NCBI GenBank assembly: GCA_918262735.1
Contig: CAKJYJ010000002.1
Coordinates: 57,226 to 121,225 of the forward strand
From: Clostridiales bacterium
GTDB taxonomy: Bacteria; Bacillota; Clostridia; Christensenellales; UBA1242
DNA: 64,000 nucleotides
Direction of reading: 5' to 3'
Shown here: positions 2,464-62,715 of the stretch, piece by piece
How positions within the stretch are numbered: the first letter of the stretch is position 1
Layout of the letters: each line of letters opens with the position of its first letter
Made by a program: the position numbers and the translations under genes
The notes under the pieces: generated by a model
What the model was told of the DNA's origin: nothing
The model's input: only the letters and a program-made list of their open reading frames with translations
The model's database searches: none

Positions 2464-3666
2464 ATGGCTAAGGAAAAATTTGATAGAAGTAAAGTTCACG
2501 TTAACGTTGGTACAATCGGACACGTTGACCATGGTAAAACAACTTTAACTTCAGCAATTTGCCAATATTGCGCTGCTAAAGGTTTGGCAGAAGCAATGAA
2601 ATACGAAGATATCGATAAAGCCCCAGAAGAAAAGGCTAGAGGTATCACAATTAACACAGCTCACGTTGAATATCAAACAGCTAAACGTCACTATGCTCAC
2701 GTTGACTGCCCAGGACACGCTGACTATGTTAAAAACATGATCACAGGTGCCGCACAAATGGATGGTGCTATCCTTGTTGTTTCAGCAGCTGATGGTCCAA
2801 TGCCACAAACTCGTGAACACATTCTTCTTGCTCGTCAAGTTGGTGTTCCATACATCGTGGTATTCATGAACAAGATGGATCAAGTTGACGATCCAGAACT
2901 TGCAGAACTTGTTGAAATGGAAATTAGAGATCTTTTAACATCATACGATTTCCCAGGAGACACAACTCCAATTATCAAAGGTTCAGCATTCAAAGCTGGT
3001 GAAGCTTGTGCTAATGGCGACATGAACAGCGAATGGTTAAAACCAATCCAAGAACTTCTTGACACATTAGACTCATACATTCCAGACCCAGCAAGAGCAA
3101 CAGATCAACCATTCTTAATGCCAGTTGAAGACGTTTTCACAATCACAGGTCGTGGAACAGTTGCAACAGGTAGAGTTGAGCGTGGTGTTGTTAAAATGAA
3201 CGACACAGTTGAAATTGTTGGTCTTGGCGAAAGCAGACAAACAGTTGTTACTGGTATTGAAATGTTCCACAAACTTCTTGACGAAGCAGTTGCTGGTGAT
3301 AACGCTGGTATTTTACTTCGTGGTATCCAAAGAACAGATATCGAAAGAGGTCAAGTTCTTTGCAAACCTGGTTCAATTCACCCACACACAAAATTCACTG
3401 CTCAAGTTTACGTATTAAAACAAGCAGAAGGTGGACGTCATAAACCATTCTTCAATGGTTACAGGCCACAATTCTACTTCAGAACAACCGACGTTACAGG
3501 AACTATTGAACTTCCAGCAGGAACAGAAATGGTTATGCCTGGTGATAACATCACAATGACAATTGAACTTATTAAGCCAATTGCTATTGAACAAGGTTTA
3601 AGATTTGCTATCCGTGAAGGCGGACACACTGTTGGTTCAGGTGTTGTATCAACAATTATTGAATAA
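2464..3666 (+). CDS. tuf: Elongation factor Tu
   Basis: [10 protein letters not shown] start, [24 protein letters not shown]; SD AAGGAG before ATG 2464. Confidence 0.99.
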
Positions 3667-3716
3667 TTAAAACACCAAAGAAGTTTTAGTTAAAACCCAA
3701 ATTAAAACATAATAAC

Positions 3717-3751
3717 AAAAATACACGACTAACCCATCGTGTATTTTTTTT
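3717..3751. terminator. Bidirectional intrinsic terminator after tuf
   Basis: aaaaatacacga / tcgtgtattttt inverted repeat with A and T tails between convergent genes. Confidence 0.8.
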
Positions 3752-3765
3752 GTAAAACATATTTA

Positions 3766-4230
3766 CTATTCCTTTATTTTTTCTATTTGTCTTAAAATCA
3801 TATTCTTGTGCATTATTTCATCTTCCAAATTTAATGATAATATTAGGTTAATGTTTTTGTCGGTGATTTTACTTATGGCTTCTCTGTAGTCAATTATAAC
3901 TTTTTCTTTTAGTTCTAGGTTAGTGTATAACATTTGTTTATAACTTTTAACATAATCAACACTTTTGCCAGAAATCCAAACATTATTTATTTTTATATAT
4001 TTTGGGTCAGCCCCCATTAAAACCAATATTTCGCTTAACCTTTTTGAGTGTTCAATATCTTCAAAACATAGTTTTTTAAGAAATGCATATTGTTCCTTTT
4101 CAAAAGGATATACAATATTTGCTTGGTACATTTCTTGTAAAAATGTTAAAACCTCACCCTCATTGCCAGAATATAAATTTTTAACTAATCCTTCGTGATA
4201 GCCATTGGGTTTAATAATAAATTTACTCAT
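3766..4230 (-). CDS. Ferritin-like (Mn-catalase/CotJC-like) domain protein
   Basis: Two ExxH-type helices (EDIEH, EDEIMH), helical 154 aa; resembles clostridial spore-associated ferritin-like proteins. Confidence 0.65.
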   Translation of the reverse strand: MSKFIIKPNGYHEGLVKNLYSGNEGEVLTFLQEMYQANIVYPFEKEQYAFLKKLCFEDIEHSKRLSEILVLMGADPKYIKINNVWISGKSVDYVKSYKQMLYTNLELKEKVIIDYREAISKITDKNINLILSLNLEDEIMHKNMILRQIEKIKE

Positions 4231-7284: not shown

Positions 7285-7827
7285 ATGGAAGAAAATGAAA
7301 TTAATGAAATTAATAATAAGAACAAGGATTATTATAACATTGACGAAATGATAAGGTTTAGTGAGAATAAGCGTCCTAAAGAAATTGATTTTAACAGTGA
7401 AAGAAAATATATGGTTGAATTTTCAAATGCTAGGAACAAAAATGTTAAAATCAAAAAGACGAAGCAAAAACTCATAACAACTTTCGTGCTTGGGCTTGTG
7501 GCGCTTTCGTCCACCATATTAATGCCAGATTACATAAACAAAAACAACTTTATTGATGATTATAGAATTATGACATTTGACCATGGATTGCTATATTATT
7601 TTGATTTTGCCGAAGGAATTGATTACTCCAACCTAGAAATAGTTGTTTATAATGATTTTATTAAAGTAAACAACCTAGTTGATGGCGAATTTGTTGAGAA
7701 TTATATTGATGAATTAAAACCGAATCTACAATATGTGATTTCTGTTACAAGCAAAGGCCGGGCGGTTTTCAAAAAAACAATAGTCACAAAAGAACAAAAA
7801 GGAGAAAAATATGAAACAGGTGATTAA
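7285..7827 (+). CDS. Hypothetical single-TM protein
   Basis: One hydrophobic segment followed by a beta-rich domain; overlaps mscS start. Confidence 0.6.
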   Translation: MEENEINEINNKNKDYYNIDEMIRFSENKRPKEIDFNSERKYMVEFSNARNKNVKIKKTKQKLITTFVLGLVALSSTILMPDYINKNNFIDDYRIMTFDHGLLYYFDFAEGIDYSNLEIVVYNDFIKVNNLVDGEFVENYIDELKPNLQYVISVTSKGRAVFKKTIVTKEQKGEKYETGD

Positions 7828-49853: not shown

Positions 49854-49893
<40 letters not shown>

Positions 49894-49915
49894 TATCGAC
49901 TTGGACAAAATTAAA

Positions 49916-49995
49916 ATCCCTAAACATCCCTAAAATACTGACAATTTGCAAGTAATCCAAACTCACACAAAACCAAAGTTCACCAAAAGTTCACC
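49916..49995. repeat. Two pairs of short direct repeats (candidate integrase arm sites)
   Basis: ATCCCTAAA at 49916 and 49926; AAAGTTCACC at 49975 and 49986. Confidence 0.5.
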
Positions 49996-50019
49996 CAACC
50001 CAAACAAAAACCCTAATAT

Positions 50020-50096
<77 letters not shown>

Positions 50097-50121: not shown

Positions 50122-50712
50122 TTACGGCGTCTTTTTCTGTGATATTCTTACTATATCTGAACGATTAGATTTTAATTTTATTATTTTGTTAATATTCATA
50201 TCAACATTTTTTGCAAAAATGTGGAGCGTTTTTTCTTGATTACCTTTCAATGACATACATTTACATTCGTAAATTCTATATTTTAAAATATTTAATGTGG
50301 GATTAATATAATACAAGTTTTCTCTTATATAAATAAATCCAAGTAGTAAATGTATCATACATATAAAAATACAATCAAATAGCAAATCTGTGTAAGGGAC
50401 AGCAAAGGCTGTTAAAACCAACAAAGAAAAATGAGTAAAATATTGTTCCCCTGTATGATTTTTACATTCAACTATTTTGTACTCTATTCCTAGTGAGTTT
50501 TCTTTAAATTTTAATGTTTTAATAGTTATTAAAACGGAAGCCAATATGCCTATGAAAGTTAATAGTGCAACAATTCCAAAGCAAATCCAAGATTTTAAAC
50601 TCATTGTATAATCACTATTTACTAAATAATTTGGAATCATTCTTACCAAGAATATTATATTCATAAAACATACAGCCATTAAATAATAAAAGATTTTTTC
50701 AATTATTTTCAT
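50122..50712 (-). CDS. kwaA: Kiwa KwaA-like membrane protein
   Basis: 196 aa, about 4 TMs, YYINPTLNILKYRIY motif; overlaps partner gene by 4 nt. Confidence 0.7.
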   Translation of the reverse strand: MKIIEKIFYYLMAVCFMNIIFLVRMIPNYLVNSDYTMSLKSWICFGIVALLTFIGILASVLITIKTLKFKENSLGIEYKIVECKNHTGEQYFTHFSLLVLTAFAVPYTDLLFDCIFICMIHLLLGFIYIRENLYYINPTLNILKYRIYECKCMSLKGNQEKTLHIFAKNVDMNINKIIKLKSNRSDIVRISQKKTP

Positions 50713-51653
50713 TCTTCTACCTTATCTTCAAATATATTATATTTTAATTCTTTCGAGATTAAGTTGATAATTTTTTTACCATTCTTTTTAGTTACATTTA
50801 ACAAATCTTCTTTAAAATCTTCTTCACTAAACACATTTCTACATTTATCTAAAATACGATTTTTTAAATCTTTAGGATCAAATGTTTCTATTGCATTTAA
50901 ATAACTAGTATCTTTACTAATTTTTGCAATGCCTCTATATGCATATTTATTTTTTAATAAATCCATAAATTTATCTGCGTTATAAAATATTTTCCATTTT
51001 GAAACATGTTCAGATGCTGTTTTCATTGCCGTTTCTTTCAAATTTTCATCATAATCAAATATAGAGTTGAATCTTGTTTCGCTTAATATATATACATTAC
51101 CATTTAAGACGACAACATCTATATTATAATTTAATGTTAATGCTTTTGTATTTTCTTTTTCTTTAAAGCGTCCATATTCTTCTAAGAATAATCGCTTAAA
51201 TTTCAATACTTTTTGAGTGTTCTGATATTTTGAAACAAAATAGCAATAAGAGTCATCTGTTGTGTCTTTTATTTCAGTTACATAAAGGTTTAAATCTTCA
51301 TTATTATATGATAACGTTTCACTAGCATTTAAAGTGTCGATATCTCTTTGCGATAAATTTCCACAACTATTTATTGCTTCATATATAGCATTCCATCTTT
51401 TTTCAATTGAAGATAAATTAAGAACGGGTAATGCATTATTCTCGTTACCGTTTGGATTATAGTTTTTTATTTCTCTATTGATAAATCCATATAAATAGTC
51501 GTTGTAGTCTTTTAACAATGAAGAATTAATATCGTCTGGCAATAAAACTGCATTGTTAAGTTTCTCGCTTCTTGCATCGAACTTTACTAAATATATATTA
51601 ATTTCACAATGCTTTAATCTTTCAATTAATTCAGTAATAACTATATTTTCCAT
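50709..51653 (-). CDS. kwaB: Kiwa KwaB-like (DUF4868) protein
   Basis: 314 aa soluble protein, LTLNYNIDVV...VYIL...FNSIFDY motif; own TGnTATAAT (51675-51683) and SD. Confidence 0.7.
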   Translation of the reverse strand: MENIVITELIERLKHCEINIYLVKFDARSEKLNNAVLLPDDINSSLLKDYNDYLYGFINREIKNYNPNGNENNALPVLNLSSIEKRWNAIYEAINSCGNLSQRDIDTLNASETLSYNNEDLNLYVTEIKDTTDDSYCYFVSKYQNTQKVLKFKRLFLEEYGRFKEKENTKALTLNYNIDVVVLNGNVYILSETRFNSIFDYDENLKETAMKTASEHVSKWKIFYNADKFMDLLKNKYAYRGIAKISKDTSYLNAIETFDPKDLKNRILDKCRNVFSEEDFKEDLLNVTKKNGKKIINLISKELKYNIFEDKVEE

Positions 51654-51717: not shown

Positions 51718-53109
51718 TTATTCAAATATTTTATTTATAACTTCGCTAGCATGGATATCAGAGTTTTTCAAGAAGTGGCTATAGAAGTCGCTGGTGGTTG
51801 ATGCTTTGCTATGGCCAGCTCTGGCTGATACTGTTTTCATATCCACACCTGCCATCAGTTGAAGAGTAATGTTAGTATGTCTAAGTGAGTGTAGTGTGAC
51901 GATTGGTAGTCCAGCCCTTGCGAGAGATTTTTGTAGCCATACTCGTAAGAGTCCTGGGCAGATATCTTTGCCATCTTCTGTGCAGAAGAGCCTATCTGTG
52001 TCACCAAGTCTATCTCCAAGATATCTCTTTTGGTTTTGCCACCAAGTTTCGTATTCATGCAAGTATTCAATGAGTTTATCTGGCATTGAGATTGTGCGTT
52101 TTGAATTCTCTGTTTTTGGCTCTTTTGTTATAATTCCAAATCCAACTATGTCTTGCACAGACCTTGCTATGGTCATTGTTTTGTTTTCAAAGTCTATATC
52201 TTTCCATTCAAGGCCAGCAAGTTCGCCACGCCTTATCCCCATAAAGAGTGCTATAAGTAAGGCAATCTTCCATCGTGGATTATCAAGGTTATCCAAATAC
52301 CCAGCTAGTTGCTTTGCCTCTTTGTCATTAAGTATCTTAACTTCTTTTTTATGCCCTTGAATTGGTGCAATGTAATCACGGGAAGCGAAGTTATGCTCAA
52401 CCAGTCTTTGCCTTTTTGCATCGGCTAAAATTGTTGCTAGTGTTCTTTTTAGTTTTAGTATCGTTTCTTTTGCGTATGGACGGCTAATTACTTTAACATC
52501 AAACCATTCATCAAAGTTTAGGTTTAGTGCGCTACAAATTGTTTTGGCACTGTCAATTCTTATACCATTGCCAACTGTAGCAGAGTAATATATTGATCTG
52601 GAGATGCCACTATTTCTAGTAGCATCAACCAGTTTTATGCAGTGAGATTTTAGATATTGAGTTAAATCCCTTTTCAGGATTGCGTATCTCTGCTCATATT
52701 TTTTTGCCATCATTTCATCTAGGAAACCTTGCACCATGATTGGTGTTATTTGATTGAGTTTAATGTTACCAAAGTATGCATCAAACTTTCTGATATTATC
52801 TTTACCTTTTATGTAATAGTTTAGTGACCTGGTATTCTTAATCTTTTCAAGCCACTTGTTGGCATAATCAATAAAGGTTATGTCATTATCTACTGCAAGC
52901 ATACCATTTAGTTGTTTTTTGAATTTATCTTCAAAATCTAAGCAAACCCTTTGCAATTCTTTCTTTGCTTGAATTTCAGTTAAGTCGTTTGGCTTTCTCC
53001 AGCACATTGACTTTGCCACAAATTGTCCAGTTCTTAGGTCTTTTGCCTTTACTTGTATTCTATAGGATATTGATCCATCATTTAATTTTTTCTTTCTTAC
53101 ACACGCCAT
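51718..53109 (-). CDS. int: Tyrosine integrase with inserted HTH domain
   Basis: GIRRGELAGLEW (R), PKT (K), HSLRH, AGH, FYSH (Y) catalytic residues; N-terminal arm-binding-like domain. Confidence 0.95.
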   Translation of the reverse strand: MACVRKKKLNDGSISYRIQVKAKDLRTGQFVAKSMCWRKPNDLTEIQAKKELQRVCLDFEDKFKKQLNGMLAVDNDITFIDYANKWLEKIKNTRSLNYYIKGKDNIRKFDAYFGNIKLNQITPIMVQGFLDEMMAKKYEQRYAILKRDLTQYLKSHCIKLVDATRNSGISRSIYYSATVGNGIRIDSAKTICSALNLNFDEWFDVKVISRPYAKETILKLKRTLATILADAKRQRLVEHNFASRDYIAPIQGHKKEVKILNDKEAKQLAGYLDNLDNPRWKIALLIALFMGIRRGELAGLEWKDIDFENKTMTIARSVQDIVGFGIITKEPKTENSKRTISMPDKLIEYLHEYETWWQNQKRYLGDRLGDTDRLFCTEDGKDICPGLLRVWLQKSLARAGLPIVTLHSLRHTNITLQLMAGVDMKTVSARAGHSKASTTSDFYSHFLKNSDIHASEVINKIFE

Positions 53110-53121
53110 ATTTTTCTCCTT

Positions 53122-53340
53122 TTACCCAATTATCACTTGTTCCATAGGTAGTTCGTATTCTTTGCTCTGTAAGAAGGCGAGCAGTGAATCGTAGTCAATC
53201 ATTATCTTCTTACCAGTTTTTATGGAACGGATTTTATAGTTGTTTGCTAGTTTTCTTACTAAGAATTCACTAAGACTAGTGTTAGGATCTTCTTGTTTAA
53301 TCATTTGTAAAGTTTCAGTTATTGTTCTAATTCTTTGCAT
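53122..53340 (-). CDS. Excisionase (HTH_17-like)
   Basis: 72 aa, RTI.E...IK.EDP.T.LSE..VRKL...I.SIK.GKK.MID; directly upstream of int; SD GGAGG. Confidence 0.85.
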   Translation of the reverse strand: MQRIRTITETLQMIKQEDPNTSLSEFLVRKLANNYKIRSIKTGKKIMIDYDSLLAFLQSKEYELPMEQVIIG

Positions 53341-53754
53341 GTTTTCCTCCAGGTGCTGATCTCAACTGGACTTGAACTCCTATGCGAAACAAAAAGTACC
53401 GCAAAAGAATATACAAGTCCAGTGAAACAGCGAAATATATTCAAAAGTAAACTTTGTATCTTTGAATTCTTTTTTGCTTTGTTTCTGTTTGTCTTTGTAT
53501 CTCTGTTATTTCGGTCAAAATCGTGCCTTCTTTGATTTTTTAGCAGTCCACTTGATAATTTATCCAACTCAAAATTTATCACTCTTAAAACTTAAATAAC
53601 GGCTTGCGTTTTCATAAAATTGCCGACTGAAATTTCACATATTTTGAATTTTTTGATTTAGATTTGATTATTTTTGATTTTTATTTTGAAATCAAAAAGT
53701 GCAAAACACCTTTATTTTTCTAGCTTTTTAATAAAAATTTTGAAAAAATTTTTG

Positions 53755-53840
53755 ATTTTTGATTTCGCGACTTTTTGTGTGCGACTGCCGTCCCGCTCTT
53801 TATAGGGCTTCGGCTAGAGATTTGACCGCCCCTGGGGGTG
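53755..53840 (-). other. cos-like packaging-signal region
   Basis: GC-rich CCCCCAGGGGCGGTCAAATCTCTA...GTCGCGAAAT in an AT-rich background; resembles, from memory, the HNH-terS intergenic region of firmicute cos phages. Confidence 0.5.
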
Positions 53841-54503
53841 TTATGCATCCACCAGTTCTTTTATTATTTCATCAAAAGCTTCCTTAAACTTATTTCCATA
53901 TTGCGATCCAAGAACTTTAACATTTGAGACATCAAAAAGGATATATGTATCTGTTATTTCATCAATGTACAATAATTCATCAATATAAGCCTTAAATAGA
54001 GTTTCTCCAAAACGCAATTTGAGTTTAGCAAGAAGGTGAGTGAGAAGATTATTTTTATCTAGATCTTTCACGCGCGCGTTATCATGTATTATTTTAATTT
54101 TTTTAATATCATAATAATCTATTGTCAGCAGTCCGTTACCTTCATCGTGGAAGCCAATTTCCGATAAGTTGAAACGAGTCGGCAATGTAAATCCGTAAAC
54201 AGCATTAAAATCTATTTCTAGATACATTTCGCGTTTAAGTTCAGACAGTCTGTTCATGATGCCAATTTTTTCAAGTCTTGTTATCATGTTTCTTATTTGC
54301 CTTTCCTTAATGTTTAATATTGGCAGATCCTCCATAATCTTCTTGTAGGTTATTTTGTAATACCACTTTTCATCAATTCGTTTGCTTCTCATGTGGCCAC
54401 TTCCAGCAAATTGCTCAAGGTAGTCAAGAAATAGGATTTCTTTTAGATTTAATCCCAGTCTAAGTAATGTTACTTGTGGGAAATTAAAGATTTTTGGTCG
54501 CAT
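53841..54503 (-). CDS. Winged-helix replication-initiator-like protein with DnaA-N-like C-terminus
   Basis: N-terminal FPQ..L..LGL....LFLDY...M.....D.K.YY.I.Y..I.EDLPIL like clostridial phage replication proteins; C-terminus resembles DnaA domain I; SD AAGGAG. Confidence 0.6.
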   Translation of the reverse strand: MRPKIFNFPQVTLLRLGLNLKEILFLDYLEQFAGSGHMRSKRIDEKWYYKITYKKIMEDLPILNIKERQIRNMITRLEKIGIMNRLSELKREMYLEIDFNAVYGFTLPTRFNLSEIGFHDEGNGLLTIDYYDIKKIKIIHDNARVKDLDKNNLLTHLLAKLKLRFGETLFKAYIDELLYIDEITDTYILFDVSNVKVLGSQYGNKFKEAFDEIIKELVDA

Positions 54504-54664
54504 AGATCACATGCTCCTTTTGTAGGTTTTTAATTCTCATTTTTTATCTCCTTTATTTAGATTTTTTGCTTCCACAAAGATTGATCAGTTCTTTGTTTTG
54601 GCATATATTTTAACGAAGTCTGCAGTCCTTCGGTAAAACCAAGTTTGGTTATTTACATTTTCAT

Positions 54665-55320
54665 TCTAGCAATCCCGTTAGTTCACCATTTGACCTCACG
54701 GGAATTATTTTTAAGAAAATTTTAATAGTCCCGTGTTAGCACCATTTGACTACACGGCAAAAATTTTTTAATTTTTTCCATTTCAATCTCCTTATATTTG
54801 ACTCCATTTTACAATTCCCGTTATTTCACCATTTGGAATAGCGGTTATTTTTATCTGAGCTTTTTTATATTAACAACCTCAATGTAAATCCATTTTTGAC
54901 ATTGAATTGTTTTATGCCAATATTTTAGCAAGTCCGATGTATCACCATTTGATATATCGGGATTTATTTTTCAAAAATATTTTAACTTTTTCGATATGAC
55001 AACATTTGTCGCATCGGGATAACTTTCTAAACATTTTTTCACTCCTTTTATTTGATTTTAACAGTGTCAAAGGATCACCATTTGAATCCTTGAGATAAAT
55101 TCTGCCTACATTTTAGCAATCCCGTATTGACACCATCTGTCAACACGGAAAATATTTTTTCTTGTTTTATTTTAAAATCTCCGTTGTAAACACATCTTTG
55201 ACAGCGGGAAATATTTTTCTTAATTTTAGCAATTAAGGTGTGCCACCATTTGGCACAGCTAAAAATATTTTCACATGTAATTTATCATCTCCGTATCACT
55301 ACCGTTTGGTGACACGGGAA
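54665..55320. repeat. Array of 11 palindromic 27-bp units with conserved CCATT core
   Basis: Units start at 54675, 54731, 54818, 54879, 54934, 54991, 55067, 55122, 55181, 55235, 55291; 11-bp arms plus 5-bp core. Confidence 0.9.
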
Positions 55321-55376
55321 TAAAAAAAGAGATATTTGTTGTAAATATCTCTAAAAATTTATTGATTTTATATACA

Positions 55377-55589
55377 AGGTGGCAAACGTGGCAAAGGTAG
55401 CACCAATCACTACCATTGACAAATAACACTATATAAGCTTTTACCTTTTGGTATTTTTGCGACTTTTTGAGGGTGCCACCTGGTGCCACTTTGAATTACT
55501 AAGGTGGCACCATAGTTAATATTAATAAATTCCTTTATTTATAAGGATTCCTGTCATTGCGGTGCCACTTGTGCCACCTTTGCTACCTT
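55377..55589. repeat. Iteron-like GTRGCA repeats in inverted arrangement (putative replication origin)
   Basis: GTRGCA at 55379, 55388, 55397, 55504; TGCYAC at 55474, 55484, 55563, 55572, 55581. Confidence 0.7.
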
Positions 55590-55752
55590 ATATCTATATT
55601 TCAATATTTATTATTTATTTTTTGGAGTATTGGAGCTTTTGGAGTATACGTTTATACTCTCGTGTGAGCAAAAAAATAATTTCTTTTTTATTTTTTTCTA
55701 TAAAGGTGGGTATGTTTTTCTGAAATTTGCTCCAAAACTCCAGAACGGCAAT

Positions 55753-55781
55753 AAAAAGAACGGCAGATTAGTCCGTTCTTT
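55753..55781 (-). terminator. Intrinsic terminator after hsdR
   Basis: aaagaacgg / ccgttcttt stem with T-run on minus strand. Confidence 0.7.
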
Positions 55782-55785
55782 GATA

Positions 55786-58700
55786 TTATATTTCACCTTC
55801 AATAATATATTTTCTTAATAACTTATCAGATAAAATTTTTACTTGTCTTAAAGTGTAGGTAGTATTATGATTACTTTCAAAATATTCTTTTGCTTTGTTT
55901 ATATCTAATGATTCAAGTAAATCATTATATCTTCCATAGGCATCTATATTGGTTTCATTTAAATTTAAATTCAACAATTCTCTTAGTTTTGATTCGTCTA
56001 TACCTAATCCTACAGAAATTTGTTTAATTTGGTCATTATGTGCATTACATAAATATTCTGTAATAAATTCTCTAAATGTTTTTCCTTTTTTTATTTCTAT
56101 AGCTCCAGACTCTAAATCATGCAAAAACAATTTTGCATATTTTTGTTCATCTTGAGACAATCCTGCAAATGATCTATGTAATTCTTCCAATGCTTTCTCT
56201 TTTGATTCTTTGTCTCCTATTGTTAGATTTTTCAAATAAAGAGTAAACATCGAATTCATGTAATCATCATCAATCGAATCTGTCTGAATTTCTGTTATAT
56301 GAGCATCTATATCAAAAGGGACTTCAGCTGGGCTAGAGCCTCGTCCAAACAATTCTTTGTATCTTTGAACAAGTATTAAGTATGTTTTCTCATCAATGTT
56401 GACATCAATAATTTTAGGTTTTCCTTTTTCTTGAGGGAATTCATATTTTAAAACTTTCCAATAAAAACCTTGTATTTTTGCAGAATCTAGATAATTATTA
56501 AATTCACAGAAGAGTTTGGCAAATTTTTGTTTCCAGGCCATATCATCAGCATTTTTCTCAAAGTTTAATATTCCAACAGATACAAATAAATGTTTTATTT
56601 CTTCAAATTTAACATTCATTTGTTCTAAGTTTTTGTCTAGCTTATCTACAAATATCCCAAAAGGTCTATTACCAGAATAATCATTTACCGCTTGTTTTAG
56701 ATTGTTATCCATTAAGTGTGGATATCTATACCAAATAACAGTACCATGAGGCTTTTCTGGTCCGTATAATCTATTTGTTCTTGATATTGCTTGAATAAAG
56801 TTTTTGCCTTGTAAACGCTTATCCAAATATAAAGTATTAATCCATTTGGAATCAAAACCTGTAAGCAACTGATCAACTACTATAACCAAGTCGATTTTAT
56901 CTTTTTCTTGAATATTTAAATATGGTTTTTTATGTGCTAATCTAGCGCAAACATCTTTTTTGAAGTAAGCATATCGACCTATATCATATGCAGTCCCAAA
57001 CATGTTTTTATAGTCTGTTAGAATGTTCGTTATACCGTGCATTTTGGATAAAGATTGTTGAGTATTTGTGTCACTAGGATCAAAAATTGCTGTAAATTTT
57101 AAGCTAAGATGATTTTTTTGAATTTCATCTTTAAATATATTGTAATAGTCGATTGCTTCAGGTATAGAACTTGTTGCAAATATAGCATGAAATGTAGAAT
57201 TGACACTTCTTACAGGCCAATTTTTAAGGATATCAGAAACTACAGCATTTTTGTGGGCTTCAGTTTCATATTGAACTTTTGGTATAAGTGATTCTATTTC
57301 TGTCATAGGGCATTTTTGTGAGCCTTTATTCATGTAATATAAAAAGATTTCTCTTTTTGCAGGATCGCTCATTGCCTCAACTGGAGTTGATGATTTTGAT
57401 TTTTCTAATGCAACTTTTTCACGAAGGTCATTATCTGCAAAAGTACAAACCATATATGGGTCAAAACCTAACACATTTTTATCTCTTATGCCATGTACAA
57501 TTGTATATCTGTGAAGCTCATCTCCAAAGATATCCACGGTTTCATCATGATCTGGCGTGCCAGTAAAACCGAAATAAATAGCATTTGGGAATGTTCTTTT
57601 TATATCTTGATGCATTAAACCACTTTGATCACGATGACATTCATCAATAATAAAAACAAGTTTTTTAGATTGTATTTTTTCTAAATCTTTTGTTTTTACA
57701 TTGCCTTCATCTTTGATTCTACTCATTTTTTGAATAGATGTAACGATCAAAGAATCATCAGCAGAGTCACTCTTTAATTTAGATATCAAAACTTGAGTAT
57801 CTTCAGTCGCTTGCACTGATTCAGATGGGTCAGCGAAGTTTCTGTAATTAATCAAAGATTGATCTCCAAGTTCAATTCTATCAATTAAGAAGATAACTTT
57901 ATCAGCATCTTTTGAATTAGATATAAGCTGTGCCGCTTTGAACGATGTCATAGTTTTACCCGATCCAGTTGTATGCCAAATATATCCACCATGTTGTTCT
58001 TTTTTAGTCCAATTTGTTCGTGCAACTTTATCAGATATTGCTGATGCCGCAAAATACTGGTAGCTCCTCATAACCTTTAGTATACCATCAGAGTCATCTG
58101 GGATAGTGTAGAAACCAACCATTTCATGCGCCATTGGAATTGACAAGAGTTTTGTTGTAAATGTTTTCCAATCATATATTATTTCATTGTTATAATCTTC
58201 CCAATGGAAGTAATAACTAGGATTGAATTTGCCATCTGGTCCAGGGTTAGCGAAATATACAGCATCCTCTGGATTCATAGCAACAAAAATTTGAACTAAT
58301 GAGAATATGCCAGTAAACACCCCATTTTGCATATACTTTTCAATTTGTGTCTCCGCATGAGTGATAGGTACGCTTGATTTCTTTAATTCAATATGAAACA
58401 AAGGCATACCGTTTATAAGCAACATTACATCTCCACGTCTTGCAGGATATACTGAATTATTGGTTTTAAATTTAGGTTGTCTTACTATTTGATATCTGCT
58501 TTTTCCACCAGCGATTTCCATCCTATCATAAATCTTTAAACTAACATTTTTATTAAAATGCAATTTATCAGCAGGGTTGTCTCTAATGATAGATACAGTT
58601 TTGCCATTAATAAAATTATTCAAAGCCAATGGCGTTTTAAGAGTATTAACTTGTGTTAAAATTTGATGCATTTCACCATTTGTAAGGGGACAACCATTTA

Positions 58701-58860
58701 GTTTGTCCTTCTCTTTATTATTTTCATATAAAATGTTTGCCCAGTTTTTTATCAATTCTTCTTCTGTAGGGTAATTGATTACTTCTGGTTCCCATCCACA
58801 ACTACTATATAATAAATTTACTAATGCATTTTCAAATTTTAATTCATCATCAAATGGCAT
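55786..58860 (-). CDS. hsdR: Type I restriction endonuclease subunit R
   Basis: D..LLING.PL..IELK nuclease motif, HTTGSGKT, DECH, FTGTP, LLTGFD, QAISRTNR. Confidence 0.96.
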   Translation of the reverse strand: MPFDDELKFENALVNLLYSSCGWEPEVINYPTEEELIKNWANILYENNKEKDKLNGCPLTNGEMHQILTQVNTLKTPLALNNFINGKTVSIIRDNPADKLHFNKNVSLKIYDRMEIAGGKSRYQIVRQPKFKTNNSVYPARRGDVMLLINGMPLFHIELKKSSVPITHAETQIEKYMQNGVFTGIFSLVQIFVAMNPEDAVYFANPGPDGKFNPSYYFHWEDYNNEIIYDWKTFTTKLLSIPMAHEMVGFYTIPDDSDGILKVMRSYQYFAASAISDKVARTNWTKKEQHGGYIWHTTGSGKTMTSFKAAQLISNSKDADKVIFLIDRIELGDQSLINYRNFADPSESVQATEDTQVLISKLKSDSADDSLIVTSIQKMSRIKDEGNVKTKDLEKIQSKKLVFIIDECHRDQSGLMHQDIKRTFPNAIYFGFTGTPDHDETVDIFGDELHRYTIVHGIRDKNVLGFDPYMVCTFADNDLREKVALEKSKSSTPVEAMSDPAKREIFLYYMNKGSQKCPMTEIESLIPKVQYETEAHKNAVVSDILKNWPVRSVNSTFHAIFATSSIPEAIDYYNIFKDEIQKNHLSLKFTAIFDPSDTNTQQSLSKMHGITNILTDYKNMFGTAYDIGRYAYFKKDVCARLAHKKPYLNIQEKDKIDLVIVVDQLLTGFDSKWINTLYLDKRLQGKNFIQAISRTNRLYGPEKPHGTVIWYRYPHLMDNNLKQAVNDYSGNRPFGIFVDKLDKNLEQMNVKFEEIKHLFVSVGILNFEKNADDMAWKQKFAKLFCEFNNYLDSAKIQGFYWKVLKYEFPQEKGKPKIIDVNIDEKTYLILVQRYKELFGRGSSPAEVPFDIDAHITEIQTDSIDDDYMNSMFTLYLKNLTIGDKESKEKALEELHRSFAGLSQDEQKYAKLFLHDLESGAIEIKKGKTFREFITEYLCNAHNDQIKQISVGLGIDESKLRELLNLNLNETNIDAYGRYNDLLESLDINKAKEYFESNHNTTYTLRQVKILSDKLLRKYIIEGEI

Positions 58861-58868
58861 ATTTCCTC

Positions 58869-60128
58869 CTATGCGAACATTTTGTTTAATAAAGTAGATT
58901 TCAAATGTTCTAAATTCACAATTTCGTTTTCCAAATTATTAATATTTTTATTCAGTGTTTCAAAAAATTCTACTATCTTTTTTTGTTCCTTGTTATTAGG
59001 ATATCTTACTAAAGTCTTACATAGAGAATCATAATTAAAACCAGTGACTTTTGTGCCTTGCATAAATGGGATAAGTTGATCATGGAATTGTGATGTATTA
59101 AAACAAATTCCTAAAAAGCCAATTTCAAAATATTTTAGTGGTCTACTTGCAAACGTATGTAACCCTGCGAAAGTTGGGGTGTTATTATTGTTTATAATTT
59201 CTATCGCTTTGCCAGCCGTAGTATCTTCTGCAGTGTCCGCAAAAACAACATCTCCTGACTTTAAAATGTTAACTTTATCACTAGTTGATATTTTTACTTC
59301 TTGATTAATAAATGGAACCTGTTTATGATTAACATCTACAGTAAAACCAAATTTTATCAATATATCTCCATAGTGAATGCTTTTTGATGTGCCACTTTTG
59401 TAGTTCAATAAATCTCTGGAATATGAATTGTTGTTTATTTTTTCAAAAATATTACCATAGATTTCTTCGTTCCAATTATCATTAAATCCATTAAATCTAA
59501 TTTCTGGCACCTTAGAGTTTCCAAGTGGGAACATTTTTGAAAGCATTGTTTGTTTAAATTGTTTTGTTTTTTCTAGTTCTTTTTTCTTTTCTTCCAATAA
59601 TGAATCTACATTACTTAAAAATTCAGCAATTTGTTTTTGTTCGGTTTCTTCATGAAAAAGAAATGTTAAATTTTCACAAGATTCCTTATTTAAACCAGCT
59701 TGAGCTCCTCCCGCTTGGAATTTTAGTATTTTATTTTTGTTTTTTTGGAATAAATAATAAATATATTTTGCGCTATATGTGTATGGTTCAAACGCCATTA
59801 CAGATTGATTTGCACAAGCTGAGAACGGTAAATAACCAGACTTTCCACAAGTAGCTCCTGTTATTGCTAATAAAGCAGAATCAGGTTTAATCATTTTTGC
59901 AGAGCTGTTGAGTAAACCTTTATTAGTTATTTTTGTTTTTACATTTTTCTCATCAATAACACAATCTTGCACAAGCCCAGATGGAATCCAGTTAATGTGA
60001 CCATTCCAATATGATTTATTTTCGGTTGAAGGGGTGCCTCCAGCAAAAATATTACAGACATCTTTCATTATTTTTTTAGATAAAACATTATTATAAGATT
60101 TAAGCTTTAAAGAAATTTCATTACTCAT
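58869..60128 (-). CDS. hsdS: Type I R-M specificity subunit S
   Basis: Two TRDs with conserved EQKQIAEF/EQKKIVEF...KMF regions and central PEIRF. Confidence 0.93.
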   Translation of the reverse strand: MSNEISLKLKSYNNVLSKKIMKDVCNIFAGGTPSTENKSYWNGHINWIPSGLVQDCVIDEKNVKTKITNKGLLNSSAKMIKPDSALLAITGATCGKSGYLPFSACANQSVMAFEPYTYSAKYIYYLFQKNKNKILKFQAGGAQAGLNKESCENLTFLFHEETEQKQIAEFLSNVDSLLEEKKKELEKTKQFKQTMLSKMFPLGNSKVPEIRFNGFNDNWNEEIYGNIFEKINNNSYSRDLLNYKSGTSKSIHYGDILIKFGFTVDVNHKQVPFINQEVKISTSDKVNILKSGDVVFADTAEDTTAGKAIEIINNNNTPTFAGLHTFASRPLKYFEIGFLGICFNTSQFHDQLIPFMQGTKVTGFNYDSLCKTLVRYPNNKEQKKIVEFFETLNKNINNLENEIVNLEHLKSTLLNKMFA

Positions 60129-62715
60129 CTTCGTTTCCTCCGATGATATTTTTGAATTCTGCAAGACCTCTCATATCAAATTCATTTCCAGTTAGTTCAT
60201 TAATCATTGATCTCAAAGATTTTTTAGAGTTTTCAATGTTGTCTGAAATCTCTTTGTAGGTTGTTTCATATTTTTCTTTGAGATGTTGTATTTTTGCTTC
60301 CAACAAATCAATAACTTCAGTTGTTAAATTTTTAAGCTGTTTATCAAAAGGTTTAATCCATTTTTCTTCAAGCAACATTAAAGCTTCATCATCAGAAAGA
60401 TTTTCAATTTTATCTTTAGTTAAAGTTTCTAATCTTGTTTTCAATTCTTTAACATCTTTCTTTATTATTTTTATTCTTTCAGCTGATTCATTAACTTTAA
60501 TAATTATATCTTCATAAGATTCTTCTTCAAATTCTGCACCTAGTTTTAATTGTTTTTTTATTTTTGAAATCTCTGCATTTAATTTTTTAGAAACAATATC
60601 TCCATCATCATCAACAAGTTGAGATTTGTCGTTAGGATCAATTGAATCAAGTAATTCATTCTTAGTAGCTTCCAAACTTGATAGTTCATTAGTTAAACTA
60701 TCAAGATTATCTTTTTCTTCTTTATAATAAACTGTTTGAACCAAATCAAAAGGAAGAATATGTCCAATCCATCCTTGTTGAACTTCATAAACTTCTTTTG
60801 TTTTACTATTTTTCTTGGTTACCATATTAGGATCAACTTTTTTTATTGCAGAATCTCCTTCGTTTTGTATAAGTTCGAGATCCAAGTATATTTTAGTCCA
60901 GTTATTATCTAATATTTGATATGCATCAAAATAATCAACGAGCTCTATATCTTGTAGGTTTTCTTTAATTTTTGAAGCAATTGTGCTTTCTTGCTTTTGA
61001 ATAATAACACTGTTTCTATTTTTTATTATTTCATTTTTTAAATAATTAGGAAATTGTGCAAAAGAATTATTAAATTTGTCAACAAATCTTTTTACATCTA
61101 CGTTATTACTAATAGTGTCATTGATATCAATATCTTTTACATCTGAATAAGGAATATCTTTTTCTTTGAATATTTCATTTCTTAATGTTGGGAATGCATT
61201 CCAGTACTTTTTTAATTCATCAATTTCTGAATTTGGAATTCCTCCAAACATAGTAGCATAGATATCCCACAATTCTTGTTTATCGCTTGAATCTACATAA
61301 CGTGGTATATTTAAGTTGTATTCATTTTTAACAATTTCATCTTTGCTAACTAGTCTTGAATATTTTGCTACAGAGTCTTTTCTTTCTATTACTGTATCAA
61401 CTATTTTTCGTATATCTTTGGCTTGTAGTTTATTCTTATTTCCATCTTTTATGTAACCTTTAGAAGCATCAACAAACAAAACATCACTTGATTGTCTGTT
61501 TTTCTTTAAAACTAGTATTATTGTTGGTATGCCCGTGCCAAAGAAAATATTTGCCGGAAGACCAATGATTGTTTCAATGTTATTATTTTCAATGAGTTTT
61601 TCTCTTATTTTAGCCTCATCTCCACCTCTGAATAATACACCATGTGGCATGACTATTGTCATTATTCCATCAGGTTTTAAATGGTAAAGGTTGTGTAATA
61701 AGAAAGCTAAATCCGCTTTTGATTTTGGTGCCACACCATAATCTTTGAATCTAACATCATTATCTGCATCAGAATTTTCCCAACTTTGAGAATAAGGTGG
61801 GTTAGAACAACAACCATCTACAAAAACAGGATCGTATGTTCTTTCTTTATCGTTATCATCAAAGAAAGGCCAATCATCACCTAATGTATCTCCATTCCTA
61901 ACAATTATATTTGCAGGAATAATATCTCTCATTACTAAGTTCATTCTTGTTAGGTTATAAGTATTTTCAATAAGTTCTTGAGCATAGTATTTAACTTTAT
62001 TTGCTCTACTCATATATTTTGATAGTGATTTACCAATATTTATAAGCAAAGAACCTGATCCTGAAGTTGGATCATATATACTAATTTCATTTCTTCCTTT
62101 TAAATGATTAGCTATAATCTCACTCATTACCATAGATGCTTCATGAGGAGTATAGAATTCACCAGCTTTTCCAGCATTCGCCGCAAAGTTTTTTAATAGG
62201 AATTCATAAACAAACCCTAACACATCATAATTTTGGCTACCATCCATTGGAATTTGGTTTATAAGTTCTATCAACTTTCTAACATTTTTAGTCCTATCCG
62301 AATCCATTGTTCCTAAAGAAGGAATTCCTGCATCTAAAGTGTCAAAAATACCAGAATAAACTTTTTTGTAACTTTGCCCTATAAGTCTTTTAAATGCACT
62401 TAGGGCAGTTGTAACATCTGCTATTTCAAAGTCTTTGCCTTTGTTTATCCAATATGAAAAAAGATGTTTATATTCAATAAAGTATCCAATATTTTTTTGA
62501 CAATTTTCCACTGTATCTGTATCATCTTCTGTTAAATTAACTAAGTCAGCATTTTCAAAATACAACTTTTCTTTTAAATACTTTTCTTCCTTTTCAGATA
62601 TGTATTTATAGAATATCAAACCTAGCATATAGTCTTTATAATTACTTGCTGAAACCTTACCACGAAGTTCATTTGCCGCCGCCCAAATTTTAGAAGCTAA
62701 TTGTTGCTTATTCAT
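60121..62715 (-). CDS. hsdM: Type I R-M methyltransferase subunit M (long form)
   Basis: IW..ANELRG, GEFYTP, YDPTSGSG, NPPY, PHGVLFRG, YNLNIPRY; long helical C-terminal extension. Confidence 0.96.
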   Translation of the reverse strand: MNKQQLASKIWAAANELRGKVSASNYKDYMLGLIFYKYISEKEEKYLKEKLYFENADLVNLTEDDTDTVENCQKNIGYFIEYKHLFSYWINKGKDFEIADVTTALSAFKRLIGQSYKKVYSGIFDTLDAGIPSLGTMDSDRTKNVRKLIELINQIPMDGSQNYDVLGFVYEFLLKNFAANAGKAGEFYTPHEASMVMSEIIANHLKGRNEISIYDPTSGSGSLLINIGKSLSKYMSRANKVKYYAQELIENTYNLTRMNLVMRDIIPANIIVRNGDTLGDDWPFFDDNDKERTYDPVFVDGCCSNPPYSQSWENSDADNDVRFKDYGVAPKSKADLAFLLHNLYHLKPDGIMTIVMPHGVLFRGGDEAKIREKLIENNNIETIIGLPANIFFGTGIPTIILVLKKNRQSSDVLFVDASKGYIKDGNKNKLQAKDIRKIVDTVIERKDSVAKYSRLVSKDEIVKNEYNLNIPRYVDSSDKQELWDIYATMFGGIPNSEIDELKKYWNAFPTLRNEIFKEKDIPYSDVKDIDINDTISNNVDVKRFVDKFNNSFAQFPNYLKNEIIKNRNSVIIQKQESTIASKIKENLQDIELVDYFDAYQILDNNWTKIYLDLELIQNEGDSAIKKVDPNMVTKKNSKTKEVYEVQQGWIGHILPFDLVQTVYYKEEKDNLDSLTNELSSLEATKNELLDSIDPNDKSQLVDDDGDIVSKKLNAEISKIKKQLKLGAEFEEESYEDIIIKVNESAERIKIIKKDVKELKTRLETLTKDKIENLSDDEALMLLEEKWIKPFDKQLKNLTTEVIDLLEAKIQHLKEKYETTYKEISDNIENSKKSLRSMINELTGNEFDMRGLAEFKNIIGGNEDE

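Follow-up and report, generated by a model that had tools for sequence, protein, structure and literature searches.

An array of eleven dyad units before the mobility operon of a clostridial island: a probable battery of helper-type promoters

We here describe an array of eleven palindromic units at positions 54665-55320 of a 64,000-nucleotide stretch of a Clostridiales genome (assembly GCA_918262735.1; 1.26 Mb, 32% G+C), referred to below as the window and located within contig C2 (CAKJYJ010000002.1, positions 57,226-121,225). All units are oriented toward an operon encoding a 220-amino-acid (aa) winged helix-turn-helix (HTH) protein, an excisionase-like protein and an integrase. The array appears to be a regulatory sequence that operates at the level of DNA. 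Its anatomy, its conservation, its link to the genes of a regulator family and an apparent correspondence between recognition helix and operator arm are seen in the sequences, and we propose, with a probability of roughly 0.6, that it comprises eleven tandem promoter-plus-operator units directed at the mobility operon, i.e. a battery of helper-type promoters with multiple specificities, which is a function that we infer.

A first-pass annotation, made from the DNA letters and their open reading frames (ORFs) alone, had listed eleven palindromes consisting of an 11-bp arm, a 5-bp centre and a second 11-bp arm. A pattern scan that allowed up to three mismatches in an 11-5-11 inverted repeat bore this out, returning eleven units at the same positions with 1-3 mismatches each (Table 1), and recovered identically the reported spacing of 54-61 bp with two longer gaps of 87 and 76 bp (start-to-start distances of 56, 87, 61, 55, 57, 76, 55, 59, 54 and 56). 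The density is far over chance, as the 656 bp of the array hold 13 inverted-repeat hits, compared to a mean of 1.55 and a maximum of 9 in 500 mononucleotide shuffles; elsewhere in the window there are 3.6 hits per kb. Hits centred on CCATT/AATGG behave similarly, with seven of the window's nine falling inside the array. The semi-conserved flanks and the outer CCG/CGG that had been described are real, and plus-strand mismatches of both G.T and A.C type are indeed present. The two long gaps exist because strong ribosome sites with short ORFs come after two internal units.

A match to a known RNA family would, according to the first-pass annotation, have spoken against a distinct element. An Rfam scan of 53500-56500 gave five matches at E-values up to 10, the best with 21.9 bits against a threshold of 40 and none reaching the gathering threshold, which favours a real element. 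Searching the array DNA against phages and plasmids in distant mode gave no match, and the inner arms of each window dyad, sought elsewhere in the same genome, returned chance-like hits only. A narrow literature search, with supplementary material outside its scope, found no description of such arrays, which is not proof of unpublished status.

The units are conserved in related genomes. A covariance model built from the eleven window units gave 110 matches in 17 of 23 sources and, apart from one stray weak match at window 7403-7453, all of these lie upstream of the 220-aa gene in the same sense. Homologous arrays tied to related elements, whose absence had been named as a reason to give up the first description, are thus found. 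Among 95 distinct units from 17 loci, pairing cells amount to 83.9%, compared to 58.4% when partners are shuffled and 28-37% when they are shifted by 1-3 columns, in an alignment fitted to the structure and drawn from related genomes that are not independent of one another. All 11 stem pairs change on both sides, and the earlier observation of arms that vary yet remain self-complementary is hence strongly supported. A folded RNA or a single DNA strand should favour G.U (G.T) among the imperfect pairs, as opposed to the near-equality found: the non-Watson-Crick cells number 71 G.U, 78 A.C and 90 other in the 95 units, 67, 63 and 55 in another 96 distinct units taken from other genomes (the second set), and 24, 26 and 29 when collapsed by cluster. 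Such equality fits a duplex read by a symmetric dimer, or a cruciform. The 27-bp geometry is invariant, with stem and loop length constant over about 190 units, and the distance from dyad to the downstream hexamer (see below) is fixed with a single indel in 94 units, the linker after the hexamer being 15-48 nt in the window. Based on the strand-symmetric mismatches and the fixed geometry, we conclude that the units are most probably not structured RNA; a homodimer reading both arms would explain the arm covariation without folding.

In the gene sense, i.e. on the minus strand, each unit is built from an A-tract followed by T's, the palindrome, a spacer of exactly 6 nt and a TAnnnT hexamer that in many cases has TGn before it. 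The hexamer 6 nt past the dyad is the most conserved element of the unit: in 94 distinct units T1 is kept in 93, A2 in 91 and T6 in 92, with TAAAAT in 64 and TAGAAT in 11, and TG is present at -15/-14 in 49. The second set of 96 units has TAAAAT (44), TAAATT (10) and TATAAT (8), with TAAGAT, TACAAT and others also present, and TG in 56. By its sequence, the hexamer appears to be the ordinary extended -10 type of this genome, in agreement with the TAnnnT-plus-TG pattern of sigma-70 extended -10 promoters. TGnTAnAAT occurs 60 times in the window against 32.3 expected and precedes ordinary genes, for example a rubrerythrin-like ORF, and one such gene has a good -35. Relative to this hexamer, the 27-bp dyad spans about -45 to -19 and its fixed asymmetric centre lies 17 bp from the -10, at the -35 position. 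The latter holds (A)AATGG, which is unlike TTGACA, so that a canonical sigma-70 -35 is missing, and a simple promoter scan reported none of the eleven units on the minus strand. Unit 1, closest to the gene, is likely the proximal promoter of the operon.

Single copies of the same module also stand 45-55 nt before the ATG of a ~120-aa HTH_11-like protein, hereafter the regulator, which is over the Pfam HTH_11 cut-off in one locus and slightly under it in another. The regulator gene was found in 33 of 401 family genomes and the regulator sample is small; a unit lies upstream of it in 27 of 28 loci by scan, and the covariance model gives a single hit in 22 of 29 loci and in no case two. Directly before the single module, in at least two loci (L056 and L070), stands the terminator-like hairpin of the upstream gene, and the dyad therefore works where no transcript is expected. 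Its predicted overlap with the regulator's own promoter is as would be anticipated for an autoregulated winged-helix operator, and binding by the regulator is likewise predicted. In both annotated loci (two of two) the gene order is a LexA/S24-type protein, the unit, the regulator, a Sigma70_r4 protein, a ~150-aa protein, a MobL relaxase and a T4 coupling protein; further along come a type IV secretion system (T4SS) pilin and a VirB4-like ATPase in one locus and an integrase in the other. Given this MobL/T4SS gene order, we regard the annotated regulator loci as conjugative elements.

Regulator and unit appear to vary together. The third residue of the recognition helix, before a conserved threonine, appears to track the inner arm of the operator: K is found with GGACA, I, L or A with TATCA, N with CACA, and S or M with G[GT]TCA. 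The pairings recur in separate clades of the protein tree, and near-identical sister proteins differ in both helix and arm. Independent contrasts were concordant in 4/4, ~3/3, 2/2 and ~5/5 cases with none discordant, for classes chosen post hoc and with rows shared between tests.

The window units resemble these operators. Six of the eleven lie within 4 of 22 positions of an operator from 23 regulator loci, compared to 6.5% when the variable columns are permuted. Two genomes carry a regulator together with an array, and in each of them a unit of the array shares the inner arm of the resident operator. Neither a single-sequence nor a profile search detected a regulator homologue in the window's own genome, which is rated 100% complete. 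An initial proposal that the array is a library of dif/att-like or operator-like sites, acting as decoys or landing pads for helper phages, is thus partly supported: the evidence favours an operator-like library with shared core and different arm specificities, in which promoter-plus-operator units would take the place of dif/att-like sites and regulators of conjugative elements apparently that of helper phages.

The unit is not confined to the 220-aa gene, as the covariance model has hits in 32 of 151 sampled genomes of the family and in 25 of 58 genera. In the window's own genome the model gives 14 hits at two loci only, the eleven window units and three on contig C5, where a second, shorter array (C5:258365-258650; L041 6366-6651) has centre sequences that differ from those of the window array. 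It precedes genes for a 147-aa protein, a MobL relaxase, an integrase fragment, an HTH_17 protein and an integrase; this locus is a small mobilisable element. The genes directly downstream of arrays, each the first of a mobility operon, vary by locus and are unrelated to one another, and at two loci a 98% identical 220-aa protein stands beside differing arrays; the suggestion that the units are hairpins recognised by the adjacent winged-helix protein is, as worded, not supported. Between the last unit and the first gene, loci L044, L046 and L047 have a strong Shine-Dalgarno sequence with an ATG-TAA start-stop, sometimes two in succession.

Two units of one array differ on average at 7.95 of 12 variable positions, compared to 7.74 for random pairs between arrays, and 8 of 613 within-array pairs have two or fewer differences of 12. 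Greedy clustering yields 46 unit types, whose order is collinear across arrays, with gains and losses. Ordered and individually conserved types suggest a separate identity for each unit, unlike the outcome of unequal crossing-over among equivalent repeats. Metagenome contigs (runs X4 and X6; cattle and pig gut) skip or repeat blocks of units, for example from 54768 to 55165 and from 54985 to 55297, and relatives are therefore read as carrying other unit sets.

Based on these comparisons, we propose that the array operates as follows. The dyad would be the operator of the small HTH_11-type winged-helix regulators that open MobL/T4SS transfer operons together with a sigma-70-region-4 partner. 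Each conjugative element would have one unit with its own arm sequence, and the regulator-less island would string together eleven operator types. Upon entry or induction of a helper, its regulator pair would act on the cognate unit or units, the activation of which would bring about replication and excision of the island and, in turn, hitchhiking; the diversity of the arms would render the island compatible with many helpers. The sign of the regulation may take two forms. An activator could substitute for the absent -35, making the array an OR gate. Alternatively, the sigma-like protein would read the shared centre and the winged-helix protein would repress, such that no single helper's repressor silences the island. 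One promoter type appears to be shared between the helper transfer operon and the region before the xis, rep and mob genes of islands. An extended version, which we regard as tentative and somewhat short of an even chance, describes a combinatorial helper sensor: the defence island and the small mobilisable element would carry an ordered library of up to 14 modules, each keyed to a different regulator variant through a one-residue-to-triplet code, and either any helper would trigger excision and replication or none of the helpers' repressors would be able to silence every promoter.

Several points weigh against a battery of helper-type promoters. For five of the eleven window units, no operator within 4 differences was present among the sampled regulator loci, and similarity between unit and operator could reflect common descent of promoter regions, not current recognition. 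The contrast tests are singly non-significant (p = 0.125, 0.25, 0.5 and 0.06), again with post hoc classes and shared rows. Promoter activity is predicted, and the sole RNA run (X20) falls on the coding part of a relative. With its centre near -32, the dyad would fit repression no less well than activation, and hence we infer the step in which the helper switches the island on. The own genome encodes one T4 coupling protein (C1:59351-60877), which has no unit within 1.5 kb, and neither a relaxase nor an oriT was identified in the window's island.

Alternatively, the array may be an operator sponge, a decoy soaking up the regulators of conjugative elements that enter the cell, in an anti-plasmid role, its promoter features being leftovers. 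The Kiwa and type I restriction-modification (R-M) systems of the island agree with such a role, as do the many operator types in the array and the absence of a regulator from the genome. However, all units have retained a -10 hexamer at constant distance and in one orientation toward the operon, strong ribosome sites stand behind some units and, in other arrays, behind the last one, and arrays also lead plain mobilisation operons without defence genes, none of which a decoy would need. We therefore consider the sponge improbable, even as the foremost of the rivals.

Slightly less probable is a role for extruded DNA, in which supercoil-driven cruciforms gate the promoters and thereby sense the excised circle, or in which hairpins are read by a structure-specific protein or polymerase, as in the early promoters of phage N4. 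Selection on self-complementarity is evident, the strand-symmetric mismatches are those that a cruciform predicts, and the flanks are AT-rich, with a G+C clamp at the stem base. The stems, however, are short and carry about 2 mismatches in 11, and recognition by a homodimer accounts equally well for the covariation of the arms while also accounting for the correspondence between helix and arm, unlike a model of pure structure.

A multi-hairpin RNA, whether as structured leader, AAUGG-loop protein sponge, source of processed small RNAs or series of antisense terminators, was among the initial suggestions and is unlikely. It would be consistent with covariation in 11 of 11 pairs, with the position of the array within a long leader that also bears conserved hairpins and mini-ORFs, and with two units that are terminator-like on the plus strand. 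It is at odds with the frequency of A.C, which matches that of G.U in both unit sets, with the invariant stem and loop over ~190 units and the fixed hexamer spacing ahead of a linker of variable length, with single units that sit between an upstream terminator and their own -10, and with the failure to match any family in Rfam.

Very unlikely is a replication or partition function, with dyads as iterons, control locus or centromere-like sites bound by the 220-aa protein acting as a Rep. The adjoining gene weakly resembles replication initiators, and known control loci and centromeres, such as P1 incA and F sopC, are arrays of about ten sites. The arms differ in all units, though, the same unit type heads operons without the 220-aa protein, 220-aa homologues lack an array in 6 of 21 loci, and separate, true iteron-like repeats lie upstream of the array. 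Recombination sites of dif, att or attC type for the island's tyrosine integrase can be set aside with near certainty: the 11-5-11 layout resembles the 11-6-11 of dif and an integrase is in the operon, but the real crossover is in a tRNA-Arg anticodon loop of unrelated sequence, the arms are not conserved, a spacing of 54-61 bp fits no cassettes, and the collinear unit order between genomes gives no sign of shuffling.

Known classes of element were compared in addition and rejected. In a CRISPR array the dyad arms would not be the variable part, as they are here, and no cas family was seen in 10 neighbouring ORFs scanned. For a type III toxin-antitoxin of the ToxIN kind, the 220-aa protein has no Pfam or PADLOC hit, the units all differ and the downstream genes are unrelated. 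Integron attC arrays are discounted by a spacing of 54-87 bp without room for cassettes and by the collinear order, dif/Xer-type sites by a centre of 5 bp rather than 6 and by variable arms, and REP/BIME elements by the confinement of the 14 genomic hits to two loci. Rep_3/RepA_N iterons do not match an array in which all units differ and whose unit type is also found without the 220-aa protein, and a centromere fails on the same two counts.

The proposed promoter battery shares individual traits with known systems. Autoregulated winged-helix regulators of MarR/ArsR type have a dyad operator over their own promoter, and their homodimer-read half-sites change together. The single units are alike in both respects, with the dyad overlapping the regulator's promoter and half-sites that co-change; unlike those systems, they have a fixed asymmetric 5-mer at -35, no recognisable -35 hexamer, and a module that recurs in other elements as an array of several copies. 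Tn916 has a regulatory pair, orf7/orf8, upstream of xis-int, and by gene order the regulator loci are comparable, with a small HTH and a sigma-like protein heading the mobility genes of a Firmicute conjugative element; to our knowledge, Tn916 has no tandem operator array. The middle promoters of phage T4 combine a MotA box at -30 with an extended -10, and the units likewise pair a good extended -10 with a putative factor-specific box at -35/-30 and lack a -35, whereas T4 uses a single monomeric box without dyad arms in a phage system. CsrB/RsmZ sponges, ToxI repeats and CRISPR arrays are also tandem units of ~35-70 nt with hairpin potential. These act as RNA, with repeats that are near-identical (ToxI, CRISPR) or G.U-tolerant, in contrast to the strand-symmetric mismatches and the geometry tied to a -10 observed here.

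The closest established parallel, by analogy, is probably the use of IncC AcaCD by SGI1. SGI1 and its relatives are reported to have helper-activated promoters that respond to AcaCD of IncC plasmids (PMC7826253, PMC8373056). Like SGI1, the element described here would be a non-autonomous island whose excision and replication genes lie behind promoters of the type controlled by a helper's master regulator, so that activation would be timed to the helper. It differs in having up to 14 tandem units, each of a different operator specificity as far as sequence tells, and in regulators that are a small HTH_11 protein and a sigma-region-4 protein in Clostridia, not the FlhDC-like AcaCD. A MobL relaxase of pLS20 type with ribbon-helix-helix auxiliary proteins is described in the titles and abstracts of two further papers (PMC5313138, PMC5675868). 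Conjugative elements and the second island here similarly have a MobL relaxase after a small ~150-aa protein; the promoter and operator architecture found here is absent from those titles and abstracts.

If the array is indeed a multi-specificity promoter battery, non-autonomous islands of uncultured gut Clostridia would couple their mobility to conjugative elements through many promoters instead of a single helper-responsive one. This would represent a new design principle for hitchhiking elements and help explain the spread of defence cargo. The regulator/operator pairs, with ~46 operator types and an apparent one-residue code, would constitute ready-made orthogonal transcription switches as well as a natural experiment in protein-DNA co-evolution. 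The unit also serves as a practical marker, as its covariance model locates mobility modules in genomes of the family.

The array is part of a larger island. In gene sense, and all on the minus strand, the order is hsdM, hsdS and hsdR, iteron-like non-coding sequence, a terminator-like hairpin, the array, a leader, the genes for the 220-aa protein, the 72-aa excisionase-like protein and the 463-aa integrase, and KwaB and KwaA (coordinates of the core in Table 1). Defence cargo thus lies on both sides of the core, with KwaA/KwaB (Kiwa) at 50122-51653 and a complete set of type I R-M genes at 55786-62715. A complete tRNA-Arg(CCT) comes after KwaB/KwaA, and a second, split tRNA-Arg brackets the whole region, its 5' half at 49857-49893 and its 3' half ~2.3 kb past the window end (tRNA coordinates: window 49857-50096 and C2:123549-123632), with an 8-bp core common to both junctions. 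Hence, with split halves on both flanks, we take the region to be a ~16.4-kb island inserted into the anticodon loop. The resident tRNA-Arg(CCT) was apparently interrupted there by the island, which brought the complete gene as a replacement copy with a different acceptor stem. No repressor gene was recognised in the rest of the island, between the window end and the far att half.

In 21 loci with a homologue of the 220-aa protein, nucleotide similarity extends from just past hsdR to the end of the integrase and ends there on both sides, which places the array in a conserved core module with variable cargo on either side. The 220-aa gene was found in only 4 of 61 relatives. Its product matches no family in Pfam, PADLOC or NCBIfam and nothing in a PDB sequence search; it weakly matches a phage replication initiator in PHROGs (PHROG 428), and Foldseek gives weak winged-helix hits (E ~0.01-0.1) and a weak fold likeness to the N-terminal domains of RepA_N proteins. 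No homologue was found among plasmids, one weak N-terminal hit was found among phages (a Clostridium phage, two accessions), and relatives sought in viral contigs were not found. At four loci (L020, L021, L025 and L029, positions 3000-4000) an array-less homologue sits behind another small ORF and a further gene, whose product, read by eye from the DNA letters, ends in a sigma-region-4-like HTH. The 220-aa gene therefore also occurs in a different regulatory context.

Table 1. The array and its surroundings, in window coordinates (units listed in gene sense).
Feature	Position	Strand	Remarks
9-bp iteron-like repeats, GGTGGCAC type	55376..55588		three clusters, direct and inverted; part of conserved core module
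Sigma-70-like promoter match	55365..55394	-	10/12 positions; immediately upstream of terminator-like hairpin
Intrinsic-terminator-like hairpin	55327..55353	-	T7 run; just upstream of array in gene sense; kept in relatives
Unit 11, first in gene sense	55291..55317	-	palindrome; -10-like hexamer 55279-55284
Unit 10	55235..55261	-	palindrome; TGn and hexamer 55223-55231; nearest regulator operator at 3/22 differences
Unit 9	55181..55207	-	palindrome; hexamer 55169-55174; nearest regulator operator at 3/22 differences
Unit 8	55122..55148	-	palindrome; TGn and hexamer 55110-55118; nearest regulator operator at 4/22 differences
Unit 7	55067..55093	-	palindrome; TGn and hexamer 55055-55063
30-codon mini-ORF after unit 7	54942-55034	-	preceded by Shine-Dalgarno at ~55042-55047
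Unit 6	54991..55017	-	palindrome; hexamer 54979-54984
Unit 5	54934..54960	-	palindrome; TGn and hexamer 54922-54930; nearest regulator operator at 3/22 differences
Unit 4	54879..54905	-	palindrome; hexamer 54867-54872
Unit 3	54818..54844	-	palindrome; hexamer 54806-54811
19-codon mini-ORF after unit 3	54722-54781	-	preceded by Shine-Dalgarno at ~54788-54793
Unit 2	54731..54757	-	palindrome; hexamer 54719-54724; nearest regulator operator at 4/22 differences
Unit 1, closest to gene	54675..54701	-	palindrome; TGn and hexamer 54663-54671; nearest regulator operator at 4/22 differences
Conserved leader	54504..54662	-	hairpins with compensatory changes between loci
Leader antisense promoter match	54581-54609	+	
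18-codon leader ORF	54484-54540	-	overlaps start of 220-aa gene
220-aa protein	53841..54503	-	N-terminal winged helix
72-aa excisionase-like protein	53122..53340	-	weak matches only
463-aa tyrosine integrase	51718..53109	-	end of conserved core module

Between the 220-aa gene and the gene for the excisionase-like protein lies a non-coding gap of 500 bp (53341-53840) with a G+C-rich start. Part of it, 53370-53420, resembles the T-arm and acceptor end of a tRNA, and ARAGORN calls no tRNA there. An 87-aa ORF at 53319-53582, which begins with GTG and is of low complexity, was rejected as probably spurious. The antisense promoter match, the hairpins and the overlapping ORF of the leader resemble features of plasmid rep control. 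The iteron-like repeats at 55376-55588 fall into three clusters, the first of three direct copies, the second of two copies plus one inverted, and the third of three in the opposite sense. These GGTGGCAC-type repeats may be an origin, or an oriT-like site that some other protein uses; where the window has GGTGGCAC, relatives carry GGTGTCAC or GGTGTCAT, even with a 220-aa protein and recognition helix that are nearly identical.

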